DNA from: Psammoneis japonica
Lineage: Eukaryota
Reading direction: 5' to 3'
DNA length: 64,000 bases
Assembly (NCBI GenBank): GCA_008632985.1
Contig: QPGO01000109.1
Span: 124,001-188,000 of the forward strand
The first letter of the stretch is position 1, and every line of letters starts with the position of its first letter. Under the pieces are notes generated by a model. It was given only the letters and a program-made list of their open reading frames with translations, had not been told where the DNA came from and made no database searches. Positions 8,762 to 26,274 of this stretch are shown here, one piece after another. Position numbers and translations under genes: made by a program.

Positions 8762-9451
8762 AAATGCACGTTTCAAACCATGGGCAATTGAACGTTGATG
8801 GGGTTACTTTGTGTTTGATTATGTTTTGTTGATGTCACATTTGCAGTTTTTGTAGTTGCACCGGAAATAATTTTTTAGAGGAAATTGACACTGCATGACA
8901 TCGATTGTGGCATTGTTGTTGTGTCAACAAGATAATCGGCCACTACGTCACCAAACTGATGATGATTCATTTGTTTTATTGCTTCAAAGAACAAGGAGGG
9001 AGGGACAACAATCCTTTTGCCACTTTAAGCTGGCACCACCAGATCCGGACGGTGACGTCGTGTTCAAATTTCAGTGAAGGAATGGGGTGTGCCTCCAATC
9101 TATGGCATGTCTTCATGAGGGGGGCACTGCATTCCCTCAGAACTGTCATTGCAAATGCAAGCAAATGAGGTTCCTTGGCCAAAACAGACTCCATTGCTGT
9201 GAAGGCAAGATTGAGATCCATGCCGCAGTGGATGGCAAGCCATGAGGCTGCAGTCAAGACAAGTGCACCCACCATTGACACCAACAACAAATGCCTGTAG
9301 ATGGCCACCTGTCACCCCACAAAAACACTGCAAAGTTCACATCCACTTGGCTGCTTAAAGCAGAGAGGGGGGGGGGGGGGGGTTGGTGCATTCAGGAAAA
9401 CATTGTGGCATGAGTCTTTCTTCTGTGAGCATAGCAGAACAAACAAGGGGA

Positions 9452-9848
9452 GACGCGTTCCAGCCCTAGGTGGGAGCTCGTAGTACTGACGTGTGACACA
9501 AATAATTTTTATCATCCGTCGTATGTTTCGTACGTAGCTTTCTACGTGTGATATTAAAAAAAAAATTGTCCAGACTCGCTGTTTTGCGAAGCCCCAGACG
9601 TTTTATATAACGATTTTATAGAAACAATAATGCGCCAGTTACATTCTTCAATGTCTGAAGAATGTAACTGGCTAAGTAAAAAATGATGTACTTCAATCAT
9701 GGGCGAGTTTGTGCGTTCGCAAAATTGCCTCATTTTCTGTTGGCGATCATTGACATTTTAATTACCGTATGATTTTACTACAGAGCTCGCACGTAGAAGT
9801 CTACGGGCCCAATGTCACACGGATTCCCACCTACGTCTGGAACGCGTC
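9452..9848. mobile_element. Young MITE of the GAC-TIR family, 23-bp imperfect TIRs, 4-bp TSD GGGA
   Basis: ggga|GACGCGTTCCAGCCCTAGGTGGG ... CCCACCTACGTCTGGAACGCGTC|ggga; interior rich in TpA and CpG. Confidence 0.85.
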
Positions 9849-14480: not shown

Positions 14481-15898
14481 CAATGAACAAGGTGGCTGCC
14501 AGCAGCAGCACTTAAAGAAAGCGAGCTGCAACTGCTGCTGCAGACTCCAGGGTGCAGTCTCCATCGGCGTCATTCAACTTAAATGCAAACAACAAAGTAG
14601 AAAGTTCATGGCACAGCGCAAATGATTTTAATTTGCAGGTTTTGCAGGGACAGAGGGTGGGCACTCTCATGGGGAAAACCTGCCCCTGTTTCACAGTGAA
14701 ACAATTTTCCTCATGGGGAGGGGGGGTCTGATCCCACAGTGTGAAAATGTCAATCTGTCATGGTTGGCATGTCATTGCCAGCCACACAACTGATGAGGTT
14801 TGAAACCATGAAAAAATTGTCTGCAAAAGGAACAAAAATCACAGTGAAAAGATGTGTGATGATCACTGTGTTGCACACTCTGATGTTCCACTCCAAAGTT
14901 GGGCTGCTGCACTGTGTTCTGGCACTTGTGTCCGGGGGCAGCAACGCGAGGAGGAAGGACTCTTTTCACACTGCGGGCAGTTGGACTGCAGCAGCCACAA
15001 TCCAACACAACTGTTTGAGGTGCACCCACGAGTGTTGGAACATCAGTTTCAAAGTTGTTGTTGTGGAGGATGTCATGTCACTCCGCACACGCGGGTTGGT
15101 CAAATCCCTTTTTTTTGTGTTTTTGCAGAACACGTCTAAAACAAGCCACAATTGTGTTCGAAGGTGAGGCATTTCGATGAAAATTGCCAAGTTGAAAAGA
15201 ACCAATTTGCTCGTTTTGCACAGTGACAAAAAACAAAAAACAACAACACCACGACACATCGTTCAGTCTGGGTGCCAGAACCCCAGGACTGACAATCCCT
15301 GGTTTTTGAAAACACGGGTTCGAACCCCGAAATGAAAATGCGGGATTGAGTCCCTGGTTTTTATTCGCGCAGCTCGCAGTGCTTTTTCTGCATGATTTTG
15401 CTGTTGCTTGCCACCCGAAGTGACTTTGCTTCCCATCAGTTCTCACGGAAAATCTGTCACTTGATCCACTTTGTGGCCACTGCTGCTTGCAATGTTGAAC
15501 CAAGCATTTGACATTTTATGCAGTGTTGCTTTCCTGTTGTTCAATGAGACTTTTGATGTGATTTGCATTGCGTCTCTTCGCATCGGTTGATGGTGGTGTC
15601 CAATCAGCCTTTTGTTTGTTCAAAAACAGCTGAGTGTCTTCCCTGCCAAGCCCATGTGACTGTGCATCATGACAGTCAAGAAAACAGGTTTTCTTGCCGC
15701 TTGTGCCTTGGTTGGTGGGGAAGTGCAATGGCTTTCCACACAGGTTGCAACTCGAGCACGAGTCTGTCCCGCACCAAACACAGAGCCTTGGATGCTTGTG
15801 GCTGGCGAACACTGCATCAAAGTGACAACGTAAGTGCGGTGCACTGCGGCACAGACGAGATTCATTTCCACCCTGCTGAGCTCGTTGGCATTGTTCTA

Positions 15899-16751
15899 GA
15901 CGCGCTCCAGGTCCAGGTGGGACCTCGTGCTGCTGAACTGCAACATCGATGGTTTTTTGAATCGCGTCGTATGTTGCAGCACGCAGATTTCTGCGTGATT
16001 TTTGTGACATTTTGTGTCATTTCATGGCACACTTGTTGAGCGATCCATCCAACAACTTTTGACATTTTTTGTTGCAGTGCGATTCTACAATGTCTTAAGA
16101 ATCGCGCAGGGCAGGTGCATTTGCAAAAACGTCGAGTGGCACGAGGCACAATTGCACCACAAACTTGGCACCACAAACTTGGCCATTTATTTTGCAGCAT
16201 GCATGCAGACAAAAGGTTGTTTTTGTCACCCCTTTGTGACATTTAAAGGCTGTGACACGTCGCCGTGATGCATTGGCTCTTGTTGGCAGCTGCACATTGC
16301 ACTCCTCCCCATGTGTCACGCGTCCATGCGGCTCTTTACTGACGTGCACTGACGCTGCACGGTTTTGGCAGAACAGTGTGGGTGCGCACGAAGGAACGTG
16401 CAGAACTGCACAGAGTTTTGCGCGCTCGACAGTGATCAACGTTGCTGCAGACAACTCCCACTCAGGGTTTCGAACCCCTGGCCTCCTGCCCAATGGTTGC
16501 GATGAACCACTCCACCATGAATTCACAACGCAGCATGCATGCAGACAAAAGGTCATTTTTGTCACGCCCTTTGTGACATTTAAAGGCTGCAACACATGCC
16601 ATGATGCATTGACTCTTGTCAGCAGCTGTGTGTGCAATTTGATGTTGAAGACAAGTGTGTCCATTGATTGAATTCTCGCACTGCAGAGCTCGCACGTAGA
16701 GTTCTACGGGCCCAATGTCAAACGGAGTCCCACCTGGGGCTGGAGCACGTC
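15899..16751. mobile_element. GAC-TIR family MITE inserted in the piggyBac-like transposase; TSD TCTA/TCCA
   Basis: tcta|gacgcgctccaggtccaggtggg ... cccacctggggctggagcacgtc|tcca; interior homologous to ~46010-46346; removing it rejoins the transposase (VTLEQCQR). Confidence 0.85.
16193..16636 (-). mobile_element. TRIM-like miniature LTR element with an internal tRNA-like segment; TSD ATTT
   Basis: TG...CA ends; ~108-bp direct repeats (16193-16301, 16529-16636); purine tract ggggaggag on minus before the 3' repeat; A/B-box-like motifs at ~16454-16524; the homologous site at ~46225-46250 lacks the insertion. Confidence 0.8.
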
Positions 16752-19564
16752 TCCAATGTCACAAAATTGCCAGCCGTCATCGTTTGTCCCAAAGCTGCTC
16801 TTCGTTGATGGTTTTGTTGAGTTGAGGCCCGCACTGCATTGTCACCTGGGTGCAGATGTGCTGCAGGGTGACGCTGCAGCATCTGTCCTGAGAGACGGTC
16901 TCAGAATGTCCAGAAATCCATTGGACCATCGACTTTCCATGATGAGTCTAACCCACCCTCTGCCATTTCCAAATGAACATCACACGCAATGACGACAGCC
17001 ATGGCCTTGCCGTGGTTCATCACAGAATGCCAATGCTTCCAAGAACGACAGAACACATTTGCATTTTTGATGCAATGGTCAAATGAATCAACTGTGAGCA
17101 AGATGAGAGACACAGATCACGGGCTTCATTCGTCTCAATTGCCCAGTGTCGCTTGCTCTTGTTTCTGCCTCTTTCTTGATGCCCCACACATTTGCTGCAC
17201 TCGTTGAGGGCATTCACAGCAGCAATGTTGCACGACGAAGTTGATTGAAATGAGCAAAGCACATGTTGGCAGCCCCCAGCATTGCGCGTGGGTGCCACAG
17301 TCTTGACAGCAACAATCGGATGATCAAACCCAGCAGCTTTTGATCTTGCATTGGATGGTGTTTGTTTTTTCTGGAAGTGCTTCCCTGGGACACCTGCAGG
17401 CAGCCGATCCCTCCGACGTGCAATTGCAGCTGAATGGCCATTTTCCCCAATCCAGTCTGAACTGCAGTCAGCGTCAAAGCAGTTGTCACATGTTGCGCGC
17501 GGCTTTCCTGGGAACATCTTCTTGGGTCCGGCGTCGTCGCCCACACTGCCGTCGTAACCCACCATTTCCCCCACTTGTTCCAAGATCACACGAATTTCCG
17601 TCGGGCCCATGGCGCCCCATCCATCTGTCCGTGGGTGCAATTTGTGTCGTCGAACACAAGCCCGAGGTCGCATCCGGCGCACATCCAACACGATCACTGT
17701 CAGACCGCCCTTGGTGATGCCGGGCTTTCCAACTGTGCGACTGGCAATCCCGCTGCCAGCTTCACCACAACCCGCGTGGCCCCAGGTGGTTTCGTCACCA
17801 CATTGATCCATTTCTGCATGCAGTGTTGTCGCGTTGACATTGTGCACTGTTGTCGAGCAAAGCATGTCATGCTTGCATGCCGGGTTGCACCCGGCTTCAC
17901 CTCTTCCAGGGGATGTCATGTTGTTGCATGGCTTCAGCACTCGCTTTGTTTGAAGCCAACGTGAGCAGCGAATCGACGAGGACACACTCGAGTCACAGTC
18001 GGATCCATCAGCCATCCACCTGCGGTGAATGGCTCCGTCACTGCCACCCTTGATGCCGTCTCAGACAATCACTGCATCAAATCTGACAAGCTCCTGGATG
18101 TTCACAAGTTTGAAATCATGTCCATGCAATGAGCACAACTTCAACTCTGCCATGGCGCACAAGTTGGAATGCATCCCCACTTTGCTGTAGAACGACTTTC
18201 TGGGGTCTGAGTTGACACCGGACCGTGCAGTGTCACACATTGGGAGAATCAATTGATGGAAAAACAAAGCATCCCGATTTTTCATCCGCTCAGCATTCGT
18301 TCCCAACAATCGCAATGCATTTGCATCCAAAGATCCTTTCCTTGGTGCTGGAAACAGGTTGTCCTTTGATGCGCCCGATCTGTCAGGCAGTTGCAGCATC
18401 AAATCCTTCTCGGCAACATCGTCACTGGACATTGACCCATCCATTGCAAATTCTCTTCCCTTCTGAATTCTCCGGCACTGGCACGGCCCCAGTTGGCAAG
18501 CCATGTTGAGTGCACTTCTTGCCCCCTCTTGCTTCAAGCTGAGAGCGGAAAGCATGTCTGCTCCACCCTCCTGGATTGTCCACATCAGCAAATGGTGGCT
18601 CCCCCTTGTCTGCTTTCATCTCGGGTGGCTGCCACCCTTCAGGAGCACCAGGAATGTTCAACTGCACTGACGGGTCACGCTCACCAAGGTGCAGCAGCAA
18701 GGCAGTGTGGTCGTTGTCAGCCACAGTCTGTTCATCACTGTCTTGGTCCACAACACGCGATCTCAACCTTTCCAAATGGGCATCAGCATGAGCTCCATCA
18801 ATGTCATTGACATTCTCATGCTCTTCATCGCTGTCACCACCATCTCCCGTCTCTGTCTCATCCGCAAGGACGTGCTCGGGGTCCACCAGTTGGTCCTCCG
18901 CAGCTGCGGGACCAAAGTCTGTGGCCGTCATGTGCAGTGGCAGCCCTGGTTGTTGTGTCGCCATTCCACCAAACGCTTCATTGGCACTTGCAGAAGCGGC
19001 CATCTTCGTCGCAACGTTGATGCTCCGATTCACTGAGCGTGTTGCTTTGACGACAATGGCGGTGGCTGCGGTTGTTTTTTTTTTTGCAGTCATCGGCTTT
19101 TCAACGTAGGCTCAGGTAACATTTCTACGGTGATGCGTCACTGCAAAAAACCCGGGATTCAGTCCCCGAACACCCCGGTTTCAAGCCCACTCTAATAACG
19201 ACAACAAAATGCCAATGTAACTCCAACCGTTAGACATGTTATTTGAAGGGTAATCAGTCATTTACATCCTGACTAAAACCTCTGAGTAATAATCAATGGT
19301 TATTGGATATTTCCGTTCAACGGCTAACGGCTAGTGGAAAACCCGGGACTGAATCCGGGTTTTTCGGGGCGCCCAGACTAAACGATAGATAACTCGATGA
19401 TTGATGATGCAGCAACAATAAGCTGTTGTTTGTTGTTGTCGTTGCGCTTCACACATTTGGCGGCAGATGACGAGAGGTAGAAGACTTATTGGCAAAAGTT
19501 GTGGATGCGACTATAGCACTATACGCGTTGGAGCCGCAGCGTATAGCAACGAGTCCTCTCCGAC

Positions 19565-20531
19565 ATGAAATTATTGTCAGCGGTGCAAAACAGCAACAAG
19601 AAGAACAAGGCTCGATCCGTTTTACGAGTCGTTCGTCGATTTCTCTTTCCCATTTGTTTGCTTGTTGTTGTTGTTGCGCTTGGAATGATGGGAGGAGTGT
19701 GGAGGAATGATTATTATTTGGTGACGACGGCAACGGAGCAAACCGTGACGGGGTACTTTGACGCCCCCGTTCACCTTGTACAGGTAGGGGATACTGCCTA
19801 TGCTCACAAAATGTCCAATCATACGCTTCGTAATCGCCAATGGGCAGAGTGCAGGAAGTTCAATTACACCTTGATTCCGATACAACCGGATTCTGCAGCT
19901 GGTGCCAATAACACCGACTGTATCTACACTCGCAAGGTACAAGCGATTCAGAATTTCCTTTTCAAAGTCCCAAACGACGAGTGGATTAATTTTTCTAGAT
20001 TTGGACGTTCAGTATGCGGCTCGTTCGTGCATGGCACTGGATAGGATTCTGCCCACTGTCTCGGTCAAGGAGAGTCAATCGTGTGAATTCATGGCGCTCG
20101 GTTCCTATCACACAATCAATACAGGTGTCCTGATTGTCAAGTCCACCGCATCGACCCGACAACTTGTCAAGGACTGGTACCACCGACAGAAAAAGTTTGC
20201 AATCTGCGGTGGTGCTGCGGATCAAATATCACTTCAATCGGTAATGCTGGATTATGCGTCACGGAACCGGTACAAGGGCTCTTGTGATGATGACGATGAC
20301 ATGAGTCTTCATGGACGGAATTTATGTTTTCGAAAAAGCATGATTGCCTTTGGTTGTCGCAAACGATCGTTTCGGAATGTATGCTTGTTGGGTTGTGGTG
20401 ATGGACTTCAATGCAAAGATTGTCATCATTGGAAACGATGGTTTGTCCGAACGAGTGGGATTTGCAATGAGAACAAGACAGTCTTTTGGCACGACAAGCA
20501 TCACGCGCTTGAGTTACAACCACCCACATGA
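19565..20531 (+). CDS. Type II membrane glycosyltransferase-like protein (GT34/MNN10-like) with a 1-nt frameshift near 19987
   Basis: N-terminal TM helix, RKVQAI, IFLDLD (DxD), INTGVLIVK, DQ motif; two overlapping ORFs (19565-20044, 19902-20531) join at tggattaatttttctagat. Confidence 0.65.
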
Positions 20532-21403
20532 AAAGAAGTGTGAAATCATTGTTGTGGATGGGATCTGGCATAGAAACAAAAGATATTTTGTATCAATGAC
20601 AAGTGGAAGGGATGGTGGAGGTACACTCGACTGTGGAGACCGTTCCTTGGGTGCTGCAGCTGCACTCTGTGTCCCCAAGATGTGTTTCAGTGCCGTTTGT
20701 GGAATTGTTCAGGGCATTTGTGCTGGAATGGTTGGTCCAAAGGGAGCTGGCAACTCTTCCGCAAATCGGCACATGGAACTAGGACGTGACGAGGAGACCG
20801 GCTGTGCTCCGAATGAAATGCGTTGGTAGGCGAAAGCCATTGTCTCTATAACCTCACCTCTGGTGGCATGGTCACACAAGGTTGCTGAGGTTGATCTCGA
20901 CGTTTCCTTGCATCGAAAGCAAGCGTGATTCAGAAACAGGAGCAGCCAAAAAGGACACAACTTTGGCAAATGTGTGCGCAGCGTGGTGTTTTCGGTTGAC
21001 GAGCGAGGAGTCCAATTTTAATTGTAGCGAGAAAAATCAAAATGGAGAAGCACCTTATTCCAAACAATTTTTAGCTACAGTAGCTAGAAGCAGTAGAGGA
21101 TAGTTATAAAATAGAGGCAGGCAGGCAGGACGAAGCTTTGCACTGTAGCACATACACCTAAATATCGTACGTTTCACCCTCGAACCCGCGCCATCGCAAT
21201 TATTTCACGGTCAAGCCGCAACCCCCTTTGACCTTGTTGCGAGGCCTTTGCATCAAGTATCAGAAGCTTAAAGACTCCAAGAGCGAACCTAAGAAGTCTT
21301 TTGAGAGTCATATGAGATATGGCAAATGAGTGGTATCGATTGAGGCAACTATTGGATAAAAACGATAAGAGCACTGAACTCCCATCATACCGTGACGTCT
21401 GAA

Positions 21404-23047
21404 ATGAATAACAGCTGGACCGGCGGCAGCGCTGTTCCTCCGCCTGCCTTTGAAAACAACATGGCTTCGCAGAGTACACTGCCTTATAATCAAGAGCAGC
21501 AGTATAATCAGGTGACACCGCAGTCATCTACGTACTACAACCGAAACAAGAACAGCAATGAACAGATGTTCGCCTGTCTGTACACCAAACAGCTCACGCA
21601 AAAACGCAAAGTGTGGCACGATGGGAAACTCATACTGACAAAATCGCCGTCGTCCTTTCATATGGTATTGCTCAAAGCGACTCCAAGTCTCGGTACGACG
21701 GGAACAGCTTTGGAAGAGTGTGATTTGACGATACAGCAGGGACAAATGATGATTGTATCCGGTAGTGACGAGACTGTGGAAACCGAGAAACACCTTATTC
21801 AAGTGCAAGGGCCGTGGATAGAGCCATCGAATCGCACATCAACGACTCTAAACAATAGTGGTGGTCCGTCCACAGGGATGCAAAAGATACTCAAGACAAA
21901 ATTTCATAAACCGAATCGATTTGTTCCTCCTCCTCCGCAACAGCATAAAGCGCCAACACTTCTCGGGAAACGGACTCGTCCTTTACAACCGGGAGAGTTG
22001 CAACGACGACATTATGGAGAATCTTGCCCACCAGTACAGCAGCAGCAGCAGCTCTATGGTGGCTCTCAACAACCGTCCAACTGGGGTGGACAACAAGAAC
22101 AGCGCCACAGCCCTCACCCGTCCAGTGGCGGTGGACCACACGAATATCGTCCTTCCTCGAATAACAATCACGGTGCTACGTCGAGTTACCCAGAGCCTTC
22201 TCGAAACATTCCGGGGCATCTTCAGTCATCGGGCAATCATGCAAGAGGACCAGTAGCTGGTTCCAACTACGCTCACTCGAATATGAATACTGGCTTTGCG
22301 TCTGGTAATCCGTATGCACAGGGTTCTCGTGAGAATAGGACGCCCCAGCAGCAGCATCAACCTTCTCGTGTTGACAACAACGACTACCAACAATTCTCAT
22401 CGAACCAACCGCCACCGCCCATTATGGATGCCACACGTGCTCCTCCAACGAGTCATTTTGTCAGAAACGGTGACGGACACGACGGAAACAAGGAGAATCA
22501 TCGTCAGCCGCAAGACATGCAATCTACTGATAGGACGCGTCCAAGCCAGAACTCCTTTGCCAATAACGACTTTGATCCAAACAGTATCTATGGTGAAGAA
22601 GAGGATGACGACGGCATGAATCATCACAATGATGCGCAAAGCACGGCTCCCTGGCACGGGAATTATAATACCGCATCTACCAATAGTAGTATTACAAATG
22701 CGTGGGGCCCTGCTTTAGACACGAATCGCCAACAAGAGCCGTGTCCTTCTGGAACGCTGTCTTCTCACAAAAATGTCCCGTCTGGAGAACAAGACAATAC
22801 GGGAGTCGCAGAAAAGAAGCCATTGTCCACGAATCAATTGCTCCTACTCTTTGGCGTGGGATCGGCTGCTCCAACGGATGCCGGCGCTACAGAACGCGTC
22901 CCTGAAGAGGTTCGAGGCAATCCTGCAACTGCACCGTTGGATGGCAATGACAATGACGGTACTCCCAACAATGACGCAGAAAATCAATATGCTTTTGATT
23001 TACCGTCTCAATCGTCCTCTGACTCTTCGTCGGTGGACGATGACTAG
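21404..23047 (+). CDS. DUF2439 (ZGRF1-like N-terminal) domain protein with a long disordered Q/N/P/S-rich tail
   Basis: FACLYTKQLTQKRKVWHDGKL matches the DUF2439 signature; uninterrupted ORF with normal composition; first ATG at 21404. Confidence 0.8.
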   Translation: MNNSWTGGSAVPPPAFENNMASQSTLPYNQEQQYNQVTPQSSTYYNRNKNSNEQMFACLYTKQLTQKRKVWHDGKLILTKSPSSFHMVLLKATPSLGTTGTALEECDLTIQQGQMMIVSGSDETVETEKHLIQVQGPWIEPSNRTSTTLNNSGGPSTGMQKILKTKFHKPNRFVPPPPQQHKAPTLLGKRTRPLQPGELQRRHYGESCPPVQQQQQLYGGSQQPSNWGGQQEQRHSPHPSSGGGPHEYRPSSNNNHGATSSYPEPSRNIPGHLQSSGNHARGPVAGSNYAHSNMNTGFASGNPYAQGSRENRTPQQQHQPSRVDNNDYQQFSSNQPPPPIMDATRAPPTSHFVRNGDGHDGNKENHRQPQDMQSTDRTRPSQNSFANNDFDPNSIYGEEEDDDGMNHHNDAQSTAPWHGNYNTASTNSSITNAWGPALDTNRQQEPCPSGTLSSHKNVPSGEQDNTGVAEKKPLSTNQLLLLFGVGSAAPTDAGATERVPEEVRGNPATAPLDGNDNDGTPNNDAENQYAFDLPSQSSSDSSSVDDD

Positions 23048-23261: not shown

Positions 23262-25750
23262 TCATCGAAAACTCCACCGAAAGCCAATTTCACCCAAGCG
23301 TTCCTCACGGTCTCGGTTAAGTCTCCCAGTCTTCTTCGCTTGACGTTGCGTATCCAACCACGTTCCAAGGTTCTTTCCATCCTCCACATGGCTGCATCGA
23401 ACGTTGCAGCCCCCCTCCCGTTCTTTGAATTGAACAAGAAGTCGAAACATTGCTTCCCAACGTTCAGAAGGAAGATTCCAAGCAACACCAACCTCTTTGA
23501 GCCGTTCCTCAAGAGCACTGTCCAGCTTTCCAGCATTCCTCAAAACACGCTGTTTCTTTAGCCACTCTCCAAGGTTCTTTCCATCCTCTTTGTGCTTTTG
23601 TACAACGTTGCAGCCCCCCTCCCGTTCTTTGAATTGAACAAGAAGTCGACACAATGCTTCCCAACGTTCAGACGGAAGATACCAAGCAACACCAACCTCT
23701 TTGAGCCGTTCCTCAAGAGCACTGTCCAGCTTTCCAGCATTCCTCAAAACACGCTGCGTACTTAACCACCTTCCAAGGTTCTCTCCATCCTCTTTGTGCT
23801 TTTGTACAACGTTGCAATCACCCTCCCATTGTTTGAATTGCACAAGAAGTCGATACATTGCTTCCCAACGTTCAGAAGGAACATTCCAAGCAACGCCAAC
23901 ATCTTTGAGCCGTTCCTCAAGAGCACTGTCGAGCTTTCCGGCATTCCTCAAAACACGCTGCGTACTTAACCACCTTCCAAGGTTCTCTCCATCCTCTTTG
24001 TGCTTTTGTACAACGTTGCAATCACCCTCCCGTTGTTTGAATTGAACAAGAAGTCGATACATTGCTTCCCAACGTTCAGAAGGAACATTCCAAGCAACGC
24101 CAACATCTTTGAGCCGTTCCTCAAGAGCACCGTCGAGCTTTCCGGCATTCCTCAAGACACGCTGCGCACTTAACCATGTCCCGAGGTTCTTTCCATCCTC
24201 TTTGTGTCTACGTGGAACAAGGCAATTCCCCTCCCTTTCTTTATAAACCAAAAGCAATCCATACATTCGGTCCCAATTGCTTTCACGATTCTTGTACTCC
24301 GTAATTGCTCGATTCATGATAATAGTCTTCATTTCAAGCAGCATTGAGTCTGAAAGCATGAATGATTCAAGTACCCGAGATGGGAATTCTGTATCAAGCA
24401 GAGGCCTTCCGAGTCTCGCGCTCTCGTCAATCACAAACACGACATCTTCCCGTAATTCGGGATCCAATCCTACCATCGCATTGAATGCTAATGTGAAAGA
24501 TTCATAGCCACCTTCATCTTCGATAAATTCAGTGTCACCAGTTATAGGCGCTGGTACCAAAACGTATCCACGCTCTTTGCCAGGAGCCTTCCGGCTAACA
24601 CGACCAATCATTTGGCGCGCGTCAACGGTACTTCGGACAGGATCTGCCATCACCACTAACTCCCAATCTGCCTCGTCCACACCGGTCGCCAAAACCCTAC
24701 AGTTGGCAACAATCGATTTGGTCGCGTGTTTGGCATTTGACAATATCTCTTCCCGCTTGGTAGGTGACATGTCCGAGCTGCCACTAACCGCAAATGCGGC
24801 TATATCGTCCTTCTCAAGAACTGGGGCTGCGTCACGCACAAAAGCACGAGCACGGTAGTTCATGGAATGGAACGAAACGGCGCTACTCACATTGAGCTTG
24901 TGAAAAGCCGCTTGAACTACAAATGGCAGTAGGTAATCCTTTGAGAGTGCCGGTGGGACGGAACCGTCAAGGAGCGGATCAGCAAGGACGGCGCTGATTT
25001 CGTCGGCATCCAATACACAAAGTGTGATTGGAACGGTGATATTTTGTTTCACGGCATCACTTAGCGTCCGTTTCGCGAGGCATGGTCCAAATAAGGTTGC
25101 ATTGTTAAAACTGCGGACACCAGTGACTTTCTTGGGCTCTGAGCTTCTATTAGGAATGAGCGTTCGAGACCCATCCTTGCAAAGTTTTCCACCAATAATG
25201 TCAACCTGTTGTGGAGCATCCGTGTACCGACGAGGCGTGGCTGTTAAAAAAAGGCGATAGTCAACTGGGAGCCGCGAGTCATAGAGACCATAGCCAGAAA
25301 GTTTGCCAATCCCTTCCATCTCGTGCGCCTCGTCAAACACGGCAAACCCCATTTTGGCACCAAGCTGCTTTAGCGCCTCTCCCACCTTGGGTAAGGACCT
25401 GTAAGTGCAGCAAATAAATGATAATCCATTTTCTTCTGAACCAAGAAAAGCTGCAATCTCATCAGAAGAGGTTGAGCAACCCTCGGTTCGATTGGTCTGG
25501 CTCGCCACAATTAATCGCGAGTGAGGCACGTGATCAAGTACGCCGAACCTATCCAAGTCATCCAGTACTTGATCCACGAGTTTCAGAGTCGGTGTGACAT
25601 AGATGACTGACTGGAGTCTTGTTCGTCTTGAACCTATTCCATCTAATGCAAACATCTTCAAGGCAAGCAGCGTTTTACCCCATCCCGGCGGTAGCTGAAC
25701 GTTTGCCCTGGGAACGTATTGAGGAGAATCTCGAGATTGTTTAGTGTTGC
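23262..25750 (-). CDS. SF2 (ResIII-like) helicase with tandem helicase-associated (HA) repeats; probable extra 5' exon(s) up to ~26213
   Basis: Frame is open upstream of the called ORF through LPPGWGKT (Walker A); FDEAH, LTATP, GVD, QMIGRVSR; five ~68-aa W..MY..L..FK.REG.C.V...LG.WL..QR repeats; an upstream ORF at 26213 starts with a signal-peptide-like segment. Confidence 0.85.
23280..24290 (-). repeat. 204-bp tandem repeat encoding HA domains, about five units
   Basis: Near-identical blocks offset by 204 nt (e.g. 23762 and 23966). Confidence 0.9.
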
Positions 25751-26274
25751 TGTTCAGATTATTGCCTCCTCCCCTTTCTCCTCCATTCTATGACGATTTA
25801 ACTTGACAAAAGTGTTGAACAATTGAATCTAAAATGTCATCGTGGCGATTGTCTTGCTCTTGGTGGTTTTCTTGGTTTCCCTCTGACGTACTTGAACGCA
25901 TCTCTGATAATGTGTTTTGTTGTTTGTTCTGCATGTCTCGTATGATCTCGTTTGTCTCGACAGCTCTCTATGGAACGAGATAATCCAAGTGCTGGTCCAG
26001 TATAGCAAACAAGCACCATGTGTGGCTGGTTCAACACATGCTTCCGATACTGCTGTATCATTCAAAATCTCGACGCTTATTGCGACCTTGAGGTGAAAAG
26101 CACTGCGTCTCCGTGCATCACCTCTTGATTGTCCGATTTTTGTTGACTGGAACGTTGATATAACAGTAAGCTGCAAAATCAGTACAAGAAGGAAAAGAGC
26201 TTGGGTATAACCCATTATTGTCTGATGCGATTGAGGGAGAAGACACGACGAAAAACTAAAACAACGTTGTATAG

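Follow-up and report, generated by a model that had tools for sequence, protein, structure and literature searches.

Neighbourhood-dependent sparing of piggyBac-like transposon ends from TpA loss in Psammoneis japonica

A TpA-restricted hypermutation of A:T to G:C is described in integrated NCLDV and virophage DNA of Bigelowiella natans (Mettrop et al., bioRxiv 10.64898/2026.01.13.699255), and adenine deamination appears in the accessible text of that preprint as a hypothesis of its authors. A second system with features relevant to this study comes from the mouse, where ETn/MusD and IAP copies near gene starts have two LTRs that differ in methylation, a one-sided escape attributed, in the available sections of the article, to the spread of euchromatin out of the promoter (Rebollo et al. 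2012, PMC3491417). In Phaeodactylum tricornutum, according to the accessible part of the report by Hoguin et al. (2023, PMC9998398), DNMT5 maintains CG methylation of transposon-rich regions marked by H3K9me/H3K27me3, while genes have little of it. How a TpA mutator picks its targets is a question left by the one paper describing it. A literature search that reached few subscription papers found nothing that deals with the erasure of TpA in a diatom or with transposon ends spared by such a mutator.

Loss of TpA and the element in the window

The DNA considered in this study, which I will refer to as the window, is a stretch of 64,000 nucleotides from the Psammoneis japonica assembly GCA_008632985.1 (91 Mb, 597 contigs), namely positions 124,001 to 188,000 of contig QPGO01000109.1. 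The genome consists of blocks with normal TpA content and blocks with a TpA observed/expected ratio of about 0.05 and low CpG; a two-state model assigned 49% and 55% of two unselected 200-kb stretches to the erased class. The changes are from TpA to TpG or CpA, on both strands, at a rate far above background and locally, in two-state blocks, and both in kind and in local rate they match the already known mutation type of the Bigelowiella preprint. The survival of TA varies with the flanking bases (about 0.68 Mb considered), from 0.003 for ATAT up to 0.45 for TTAA, the mutator favouring a purine before the T on either strand. ATAT, ATAC/GTAT, ATAG/CTAT, and GTAC are nearly absent (0.003 to 0.04), and the resistant contexts are TTAA, CTAA/TTAG, and CTAG (relative survival 0.2 to 0.45).

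Twelve copies or fragments of the element in the window were aligned, and 152 TA sites and 232 CG sites were called; six copies in the assembly are full-length or nearly so. In the bodies of the aligned copies (beyond element position 300), sites that once were TA now read CA in 419 cases, TG in 417, TA in 55, and something else in 5, and 93–98% of body TA is gone in every copy. CA and TG co-occur at the same alignment columns in different copies, so the loss of TA occurred separately in each. Five copies of the same subfamily have lost 94–96% of their TA, as compared to a difference from the majority of 0.7–1.3% at other body sites, and all six copies examined have changes from Tyr to Cys or His. 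The loss of TpA is post-insertion, independent in each copy, and strand-symmetric.

The features of the copy in the window are collected in Table 1. Its two TIRs are as the original prediction described them, a left arm with two changes and an unmutated right arm, and they extend one base past the earlier quotation (T at 15259, A at 19385); the inverted arms (15258-15276 and 19368-19386) are 89% complementary. At the sites mutated in the 3' TIR, TA is kept in C65 and C111, and CG in C76. At six 5' and six 3' junctions the TIR begins TCG and is flanked by TA or mutated CA/TG (five of the six 3' junctions have CA or TG), and I therefore read the CA beside the 3' TIR as a mutated TA target duplication.

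Table 1. Features in and around the transposon copy, in window coordinates.
Feature	Position	Strand	Remarks
Target duplication, TA mutated to CA	15257..15258		
Dead piggyBac-like DNA transposon	15259..19385	-	about 3.27 kb plus 855-bp nested insert
3' TIR	15259..15276	+	one TA to CA and one CG to TG change
Broken transposase frame	15516..19093	-	probable start codon at 19093 (element position 293)
Nested high-copy MITE	15897..16751		31-bp inverted ends; contains a very high-copy element of about 440 bp (~16193-16633)
Edge of TA-erased block	19088..19107		last kept TA at 19107; sites at ~19088, 19044, and 19022 mutated
Spared 5' end	19107..19385	-	of 17 sites that are TA in at least one copy, 16 kept; CG 15/19 kept
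Inner subterminal motif	19147..19166		inverted relative to 19345-19364; third copy at 15335-15354
5' TIR, unmutated	19368..19385	-	
TA target duplication, kept	19386..19387		
Single-copy host gene	19565..20531	+	points away from element; weak nucleotide-diphospho-sugar transferase match
Single-copy TA-poor patch	20300..21000		3' side of host gene

A Pfam search of the mutated transposase frames found no family, and the family was assigned through homologues instead. The 532-residue frame of a sister copy (C1a) matches 226 proteins, several of them with PF13843 or the name PiggyBac. The homologues are 40–56% identical, one of them (P0090) matches PF13843 with an E value of 4.6e-8, and those that are named come from the diatom Cylindrotheca closterium. 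Three acidic (DDD) motifs, which I take to be equivalent to D268/D346/D447 of piggyBac, align between the element copies and the homologues, and a Cys-rich C-terminal domain with the pattern CxxC...C/CxxC...H is present in the homologues and at 15516-16016 of the window. The 24 tyrosines of homologue P0001 that align to the window copy are represented there by 15 Cys, 6 His, and 1 Tyr.

The element thus resembles the piggyBac superfamily (PF13843, PGBD4-like diatom proteins) in transposase homology, acidic motifs, Cys-rich C-terminus, and asymmetric subterminal repeats. Canonical piggyBac duplicates TTAA and has CCC...GGG termini, whereas the present element and its MITEs have TA (or CA/TG) flanks and TCG...CGA termini, and it is therefore classed as piggyBac-like only. 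The literature search found no description of a TA-duplicating diatom piggyBac. The family so defined has both autonomous and MITE members (window ends; L058-L087).

The same end in different neighbourhoods

The original prediction held that the last 300 bp or so of the element, beside the gene island, keep many TAs. As compared to the aligned copies, the window copy keeps 16 of 20 TA sites in its first 300 bp (the head) and 5 of 131 in the rest, which bears this out, and a count within the window agrees: 19 TA in 19090-19390 versus 3 in the adjoining 2338 bp of the element (Poisson p ~1e-25). A two-state HMM puts the edge at 19102/19103. The TIR pair by itself is weak evidence, since its TA has one of the more resistant contexts (CTAA/TTAG, relative survival 0.32) and survives in two of six tails and one of two heads on the repeat side.

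The comparison called for is between copies of the same end in different surroundings. Over the first 300 bp, six copies adjacent to genes together keep 59 of their 90 TA sites (the window copy, C110, 16/20; C21 18/20; C365 11/20; C65 7/16; C3 5/10; C1b 2/4). In four copies embedded in repeats, the figure is 6 of 68 (C40 0/20, C111 3/20, C76 2/13, C132 1/15). The separation is complete, each gene-side copy outranking each repeat-side copy, and with C76 and C132 counted as one insertion because they share most states, the comparison is of six versus three independent insertions (exact p 0.012). Two copies were left out of the counts: C464, a near-duplicate contig of C365, and C1a, whose flank is neither gene nor erased DNA. 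The truncated head of C1a, which abuts an LTR-like repeat and has no called host gene beside it, keeps 7 of 14. In the region of the element (L036, L037), contigs C365 and C464 hardly differ and are probably uncollapsed alleles.

Sequence context as the only cause of the spared end was rejected, as it leads one to expect 17 of 90 sites kept in place of the 59 observed. When the comparison is confined to the five contexts present in the head, gene-side heads keep 59/86 (69%), repeat-side heads 4/52 (8%), and bodies 28/342 (8%), so the end is not intrinsically protected. The comparison of copies that the original prediction called for thus shows, as far as sequence can, that sparing depends on neighbourhood rather than on the sequence of the transposon, as had been proposed; had all copies kept TA at this end, the opposite would have been concluded. 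The loss of CG splits in the same way, 73 of 88 head CG sites being kept on the gene side and 25 of 56 on the repeat side. Neighbour-dependent sparing, with CG tracking TA, points to a chromatin-domain rule.

The pattern extends to two other families. A pattern search turned up a MITE family whose termini are related to those of the element, and 30 loci were fetched. The test was made without seven young copies (identity at least 0.87, reference included), L061 (end missing), L080 (TA-rich on both sides and poorly aligned), L072 (a near-duplicate of L071), and four loci that repeat the other end of another copy. In the first 120 bp of the promoterless end of old copies, TA is kept at 20 of 31 sites in five gene-side copies versus 8 of 60 in eleven repeat-side copies; further in, the counts are 5/23 versus 2/61 and then 0/13 versus 3/37, the MITE ends being spared less deeply (about 75–220 bp). 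A TA-rich MITE also lies at the other island edge of the window (~9447-9834). In a third family, spared ends are 360–400 bp long, and at one end all six TA are kept beside genes (C76), two of those six inside repeats (C132). This third family (L038, L040/L041; C76, C132) is a two-frame DNA element, presumably PIF/Harbinger-like, with a nested 190-bp mini-copy of the piggyBac-like family. The spared zone may also cross from one repeat into the next: in C1b it passes from 85 bp of the piggyBac-like element into about 118 bp of another repeat.

The sharp edge that had been predicted is found in C110 and C21 but not elsewhere: the other gene-adjacent copies keep 44–55%, with scattered losses, and sparing overall is graded, from 44 to 90% per copy over a depth of about 75–400 bp. 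On average it lowers the loss 6- to 7-fold (-ln kept 0.38 versus 2.5), far more in the best copies, and it is not absolute. In all five spared copies that reach it (C110, C21, C365, C65, C1a), the drop comes at element position 280–400, close to the transposase start (293), and this in spite of 84 bp missing from C1a and of an insertion and a deletion upstream in C65. The four most sensitive contexts account for only 1 of the 20 sites in the head, as compared to about half of body sites. The element may therefore help to set the edge without being able to protect itself. The near absence of sensitive-context TA from the head (window 19090-19385) gives the impression that the mutator has already acted as a filter on the active lineage.

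The neighbouring genes and the explanations weighed

The host gene beside the element matches PF03407 with an E value of 0.0012, below the cut-off, and its probable start is separated from the TIR by 180 bp and from the edge by about 460 bp. Contigs of two runs from one sample (X1 and X2; perhaps the source of the assembly) were compared with window 14500-22500. Between 19419 and 20827, the 14 differences listed between X1 and the window include nine losses of TA and two of CG, and the X2 contig retains, in the region of the host gene, the TA lost in X1. The island is therefore not pristine on every allele, and the cautious conclusion from these unphased contigs is a partial erosion of the neighbouring gene on one allele. 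The X2 contig departs from the window at 19384; the nine letters that follow do not resemble the TIR but do resemble a host unit at 19467, and the contig is perhaps an allele lacking the element. X2 covers mainly gene-shaped blocks, and its library type was guessed to be DNA. The window differs from the contigs of both runs at 19988 and 20427; at the former, one base is absent from both, and without it the host frame has 321 codons in place of 159, so the split of the frame there is probably an assembly error. In and near the element, single-depth X1 contigs read TG where the window has CA at 18482-18483, in an otherwise identical 333 bp, and show three CG-type differences near the tail (14975-15116), both of which I take as signs of recent, independent hits. 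Elsewhere in the window (23262-25787, minus strand) there is an intact 841-codon DEAD-type helicase with five helicase-associated domains.

Besides the window's, 12 spared ends were inspected, ten of which have a Pfam-matched frame nearby, making 11 with the window gene. Ten of the 11 (three matches being weak) point away from the element, with the 5' end towards it, and their probable starts are mostly 75–560 bp outside it; on C3 a kinesin frame points towards the element from beyond an N gap. Among the 34 genes called at unselected edges, 23 likewise present their 5' end, and relative to this baseline the excess is not significant (p 0.085), the facing of gene 5' ends to spared ends being suggestive only. 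In the third family one spared end was assigned to a 3' side, and the spared end of another repeat lies inside a gene frame. Heads abut gene islands in 6 of 10 or 11 cases (C110, C21, C365, C65, C3, C1) and tails in none of 6 (Fisher p 0.03–0.04), numbers that are small and come from separate searches.

Some observations concern edges in general. Under a rough gene model, erased blocks adjoin gene 5' ends more than 3' ends (23 versus 11, p 0.058; L088-L127), and the spared margins from edge to gene are alike on the two sides (medians of 253 and 263 bp for the 23 and 11 edges). Edge statistics from an earlier gene model (4th order, 61 training frames) were discarded, since that model overlooked genes with Pfam matches; the codon model that replaced it is still rough. 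An all-against-all BLAST of about 0.7 Mb gave too few repeat-spanning edges for a comparison of depth between 5' and 3' sides.

The explanation I consider probable, from the sequence comparisons above, is that a zone of promoter chromatin anchored on the neighbour holds off the TA mutator. A strand-symmetric mutator turns TpA into TpG or CpA in presumably silenced DNA, acting on each copy independently after its insertion, and is held off by a zone that, according to the comparison of copies, is anchored on the neighbour and not on the transposon. Most likely this zone would consist of open chromatin, free of methylation, at the start of an active host gene, reaching some 200–750 bp upstream of the start codon and so covering the first 75–400 bp of an inserted element. 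It would also lower the loss of CG, as expected if CG methylation, presumed here from the biology of diatom DNMT5, is kept out. This host zone probably runs together with the promoter or 5' UTR of the element itself, which would then contribute to placing the edge near the transposase start.

The alternative offered with the original prediction, that the end is protected intrinsically, the transposase promoter or proteins on the subterminal motifs shielding 300 bp anywhere, I consider unlikely. It would account for the constant position of the edge near the transposase start and is in keeping with the scarcity of sensitive contexts in the head, with the sites kept by C1a in the absence of a host gene, and with tails that keep 26 of 119 TA, above the bodies. 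In its strong form it fails on the equality of repeat-side heads and bodies in matched contexts, and as a sole cause it is refuted by C40, C111, and C76/C132, the last two of which share the head type of the spared copies (0/100 and 4/150 background differences) yet lost their TA. Moreover, the promoterless MITE end is spared only beside genes, and the sparing continues beyond the inner motif (position ~240). A quite different account, to which I give little credence, is that the spared end is younger DNA, whether by conversion from an unmutated copy after insertion or because gene-side copies are simply younger. The window copy is in fact a recombinant, its first 350–390 bp being of the C21 type and its body of the C40 type (switch at window ~18995-19035): 69 differences from the majority are common to its body and C40 after position 390, none in 1–350 (p ~2e-5). 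Age does matter as a second factor, since in a young MITE subfamily hardly any TA has been lost, whether or not repeats surround the copy (L062 22/22, L064 18/21). Body CG retention is lower in C40 (33%) and C111 (36%) than in most gene-side copies (45–58%). But the switch in ancestry (350–391) lies beyond the TA edge (278–298), with sites 298, 342, and 364 between them mutated (16/17 versus 0/3, p 0.004), and C21, C365, C65, and C3 are spared with no such switch, so a young patch does not explain the pattern and this reading is largely refuted by the non-recombinant copies. Bodies are erased alike in all copies, and a difference in body CG as small as that between C21 (46%) and C111 cannot yield heads of 18/20 and 3/20.

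Selection is likewise improbable as the cause. If the end formed part of the host promoter and mutated alleles were removed, one would expect spared ends to lie shortly upstream of start codons, as most do, and heads to face genes more than tails, as they do; but nearly every TA and CG over 280–370 bp would have to be important, in six unrelated promoters and three families, while the losses in half-spared copies are scattered and indels are tolerated in spared heads (C65, C3, C464, C1b). RIP of ascomycetes is also targeted and saturating, kills repeats, and can leak into flanks; it is triggered by homology and changes C:G to T:A, creating TpA. A homology-driven process of this sort, fading towards the ends of the paired segment, would suit the observation that every affected copy is a repeat and that tails keep 22% of TA as compared to about 4% in bodies, and yet it is very improbable here: homology ends just as well at the repeat-side heads, which are erased, the single-copy patch 3' of the host gene is TA-poor, the tail excess is partly context (15 of the 26 expected), and the change is opposite to that of RIP, TpA observed/expected in repeats being about 0.05. 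Least credible of all is an artefact of assembly, either a mosaic contig or polishing that drew on reads from other copies or from the second allele. The disagreements with X1 and X2 described above, including the departure of X2 at 19384, are what such an artefact might leave behind; mis-polishing, however, would restore TA in the interior of repeats and not beside a unique anchor, the pattern recurs at six plus five other loci, and among the differences between runs that are listed none falls within 19090-19390.

Comparison with known systems

If a promoter-anchored zone is responsible, element ends beside genes would look younger than they are, and the survival of TA could mark promoters in diatom genomes that lack chromatin data. 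A broader picture can be offered only tentatively, and I would not be surprised if it proved wrong. In it the TA mutator would act as a natural agent of chromatin footprinting: kept away from the few hundred bases that surround each active promoter, it would leave TA behind in old transposons as a map, readable from sequence alone, of promoter activity over evolutionary time. The position of the family, head-first against host promoters, would account for its survival with an intact promoter and 5' TIR, and where the boundary failed, as on some alleles, the neighbouring gene would be eroded.

The system differs from RIP in that TpA is here destroyed and position decides. DNMT5 methylation, as the accessible part of the Phaeodactylum report describes it in that other species, fits the loss of CG seen here, but would account only for CG to TG/CA and not for the loss of TA. 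There is also a likeness to the mouse ERVs: in both cases, going by the available sections of the mouse study, escape is one-sided, confined within a copy to whichever end lies near a gene start, and here too the same sequence is spared near genes and not elsewhere, in the piggyBac-like heads as in the MITE ends. The mouse study measured reversible methylation in three copies, the spared end being the 3' LTR, whereas in P. japonica the record is one of permanent mutation, read from sequence, and the spared end is the 5' end.

The hypermutation of Bigelowiella, in the preprint text at hand, has in common with the present one the change from TpA to TpG or CpA, its action on both strands, its local character, and targets that are foreign or transposon-like and include single-copy ones. 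In Bigelowiella the process was followed as new mutations and was active in some of the lines, and of such activity the allele differences at the present locus give at most a hint. The preprint text does not treat edges, spared ends of elements, or a preference for flanking bases. The two differ in lineage, and in P. japonica about half of a 400-kb sample is erased, with near-complete loss in element bodies. What the present study adds is a multi-copy, context-matched, reciprocal control of position-dependent sparing, in which the fate of the same 300 bases, erasure or sparing, goes with what adjoins them, in three families of elements, and CG moves with TA.
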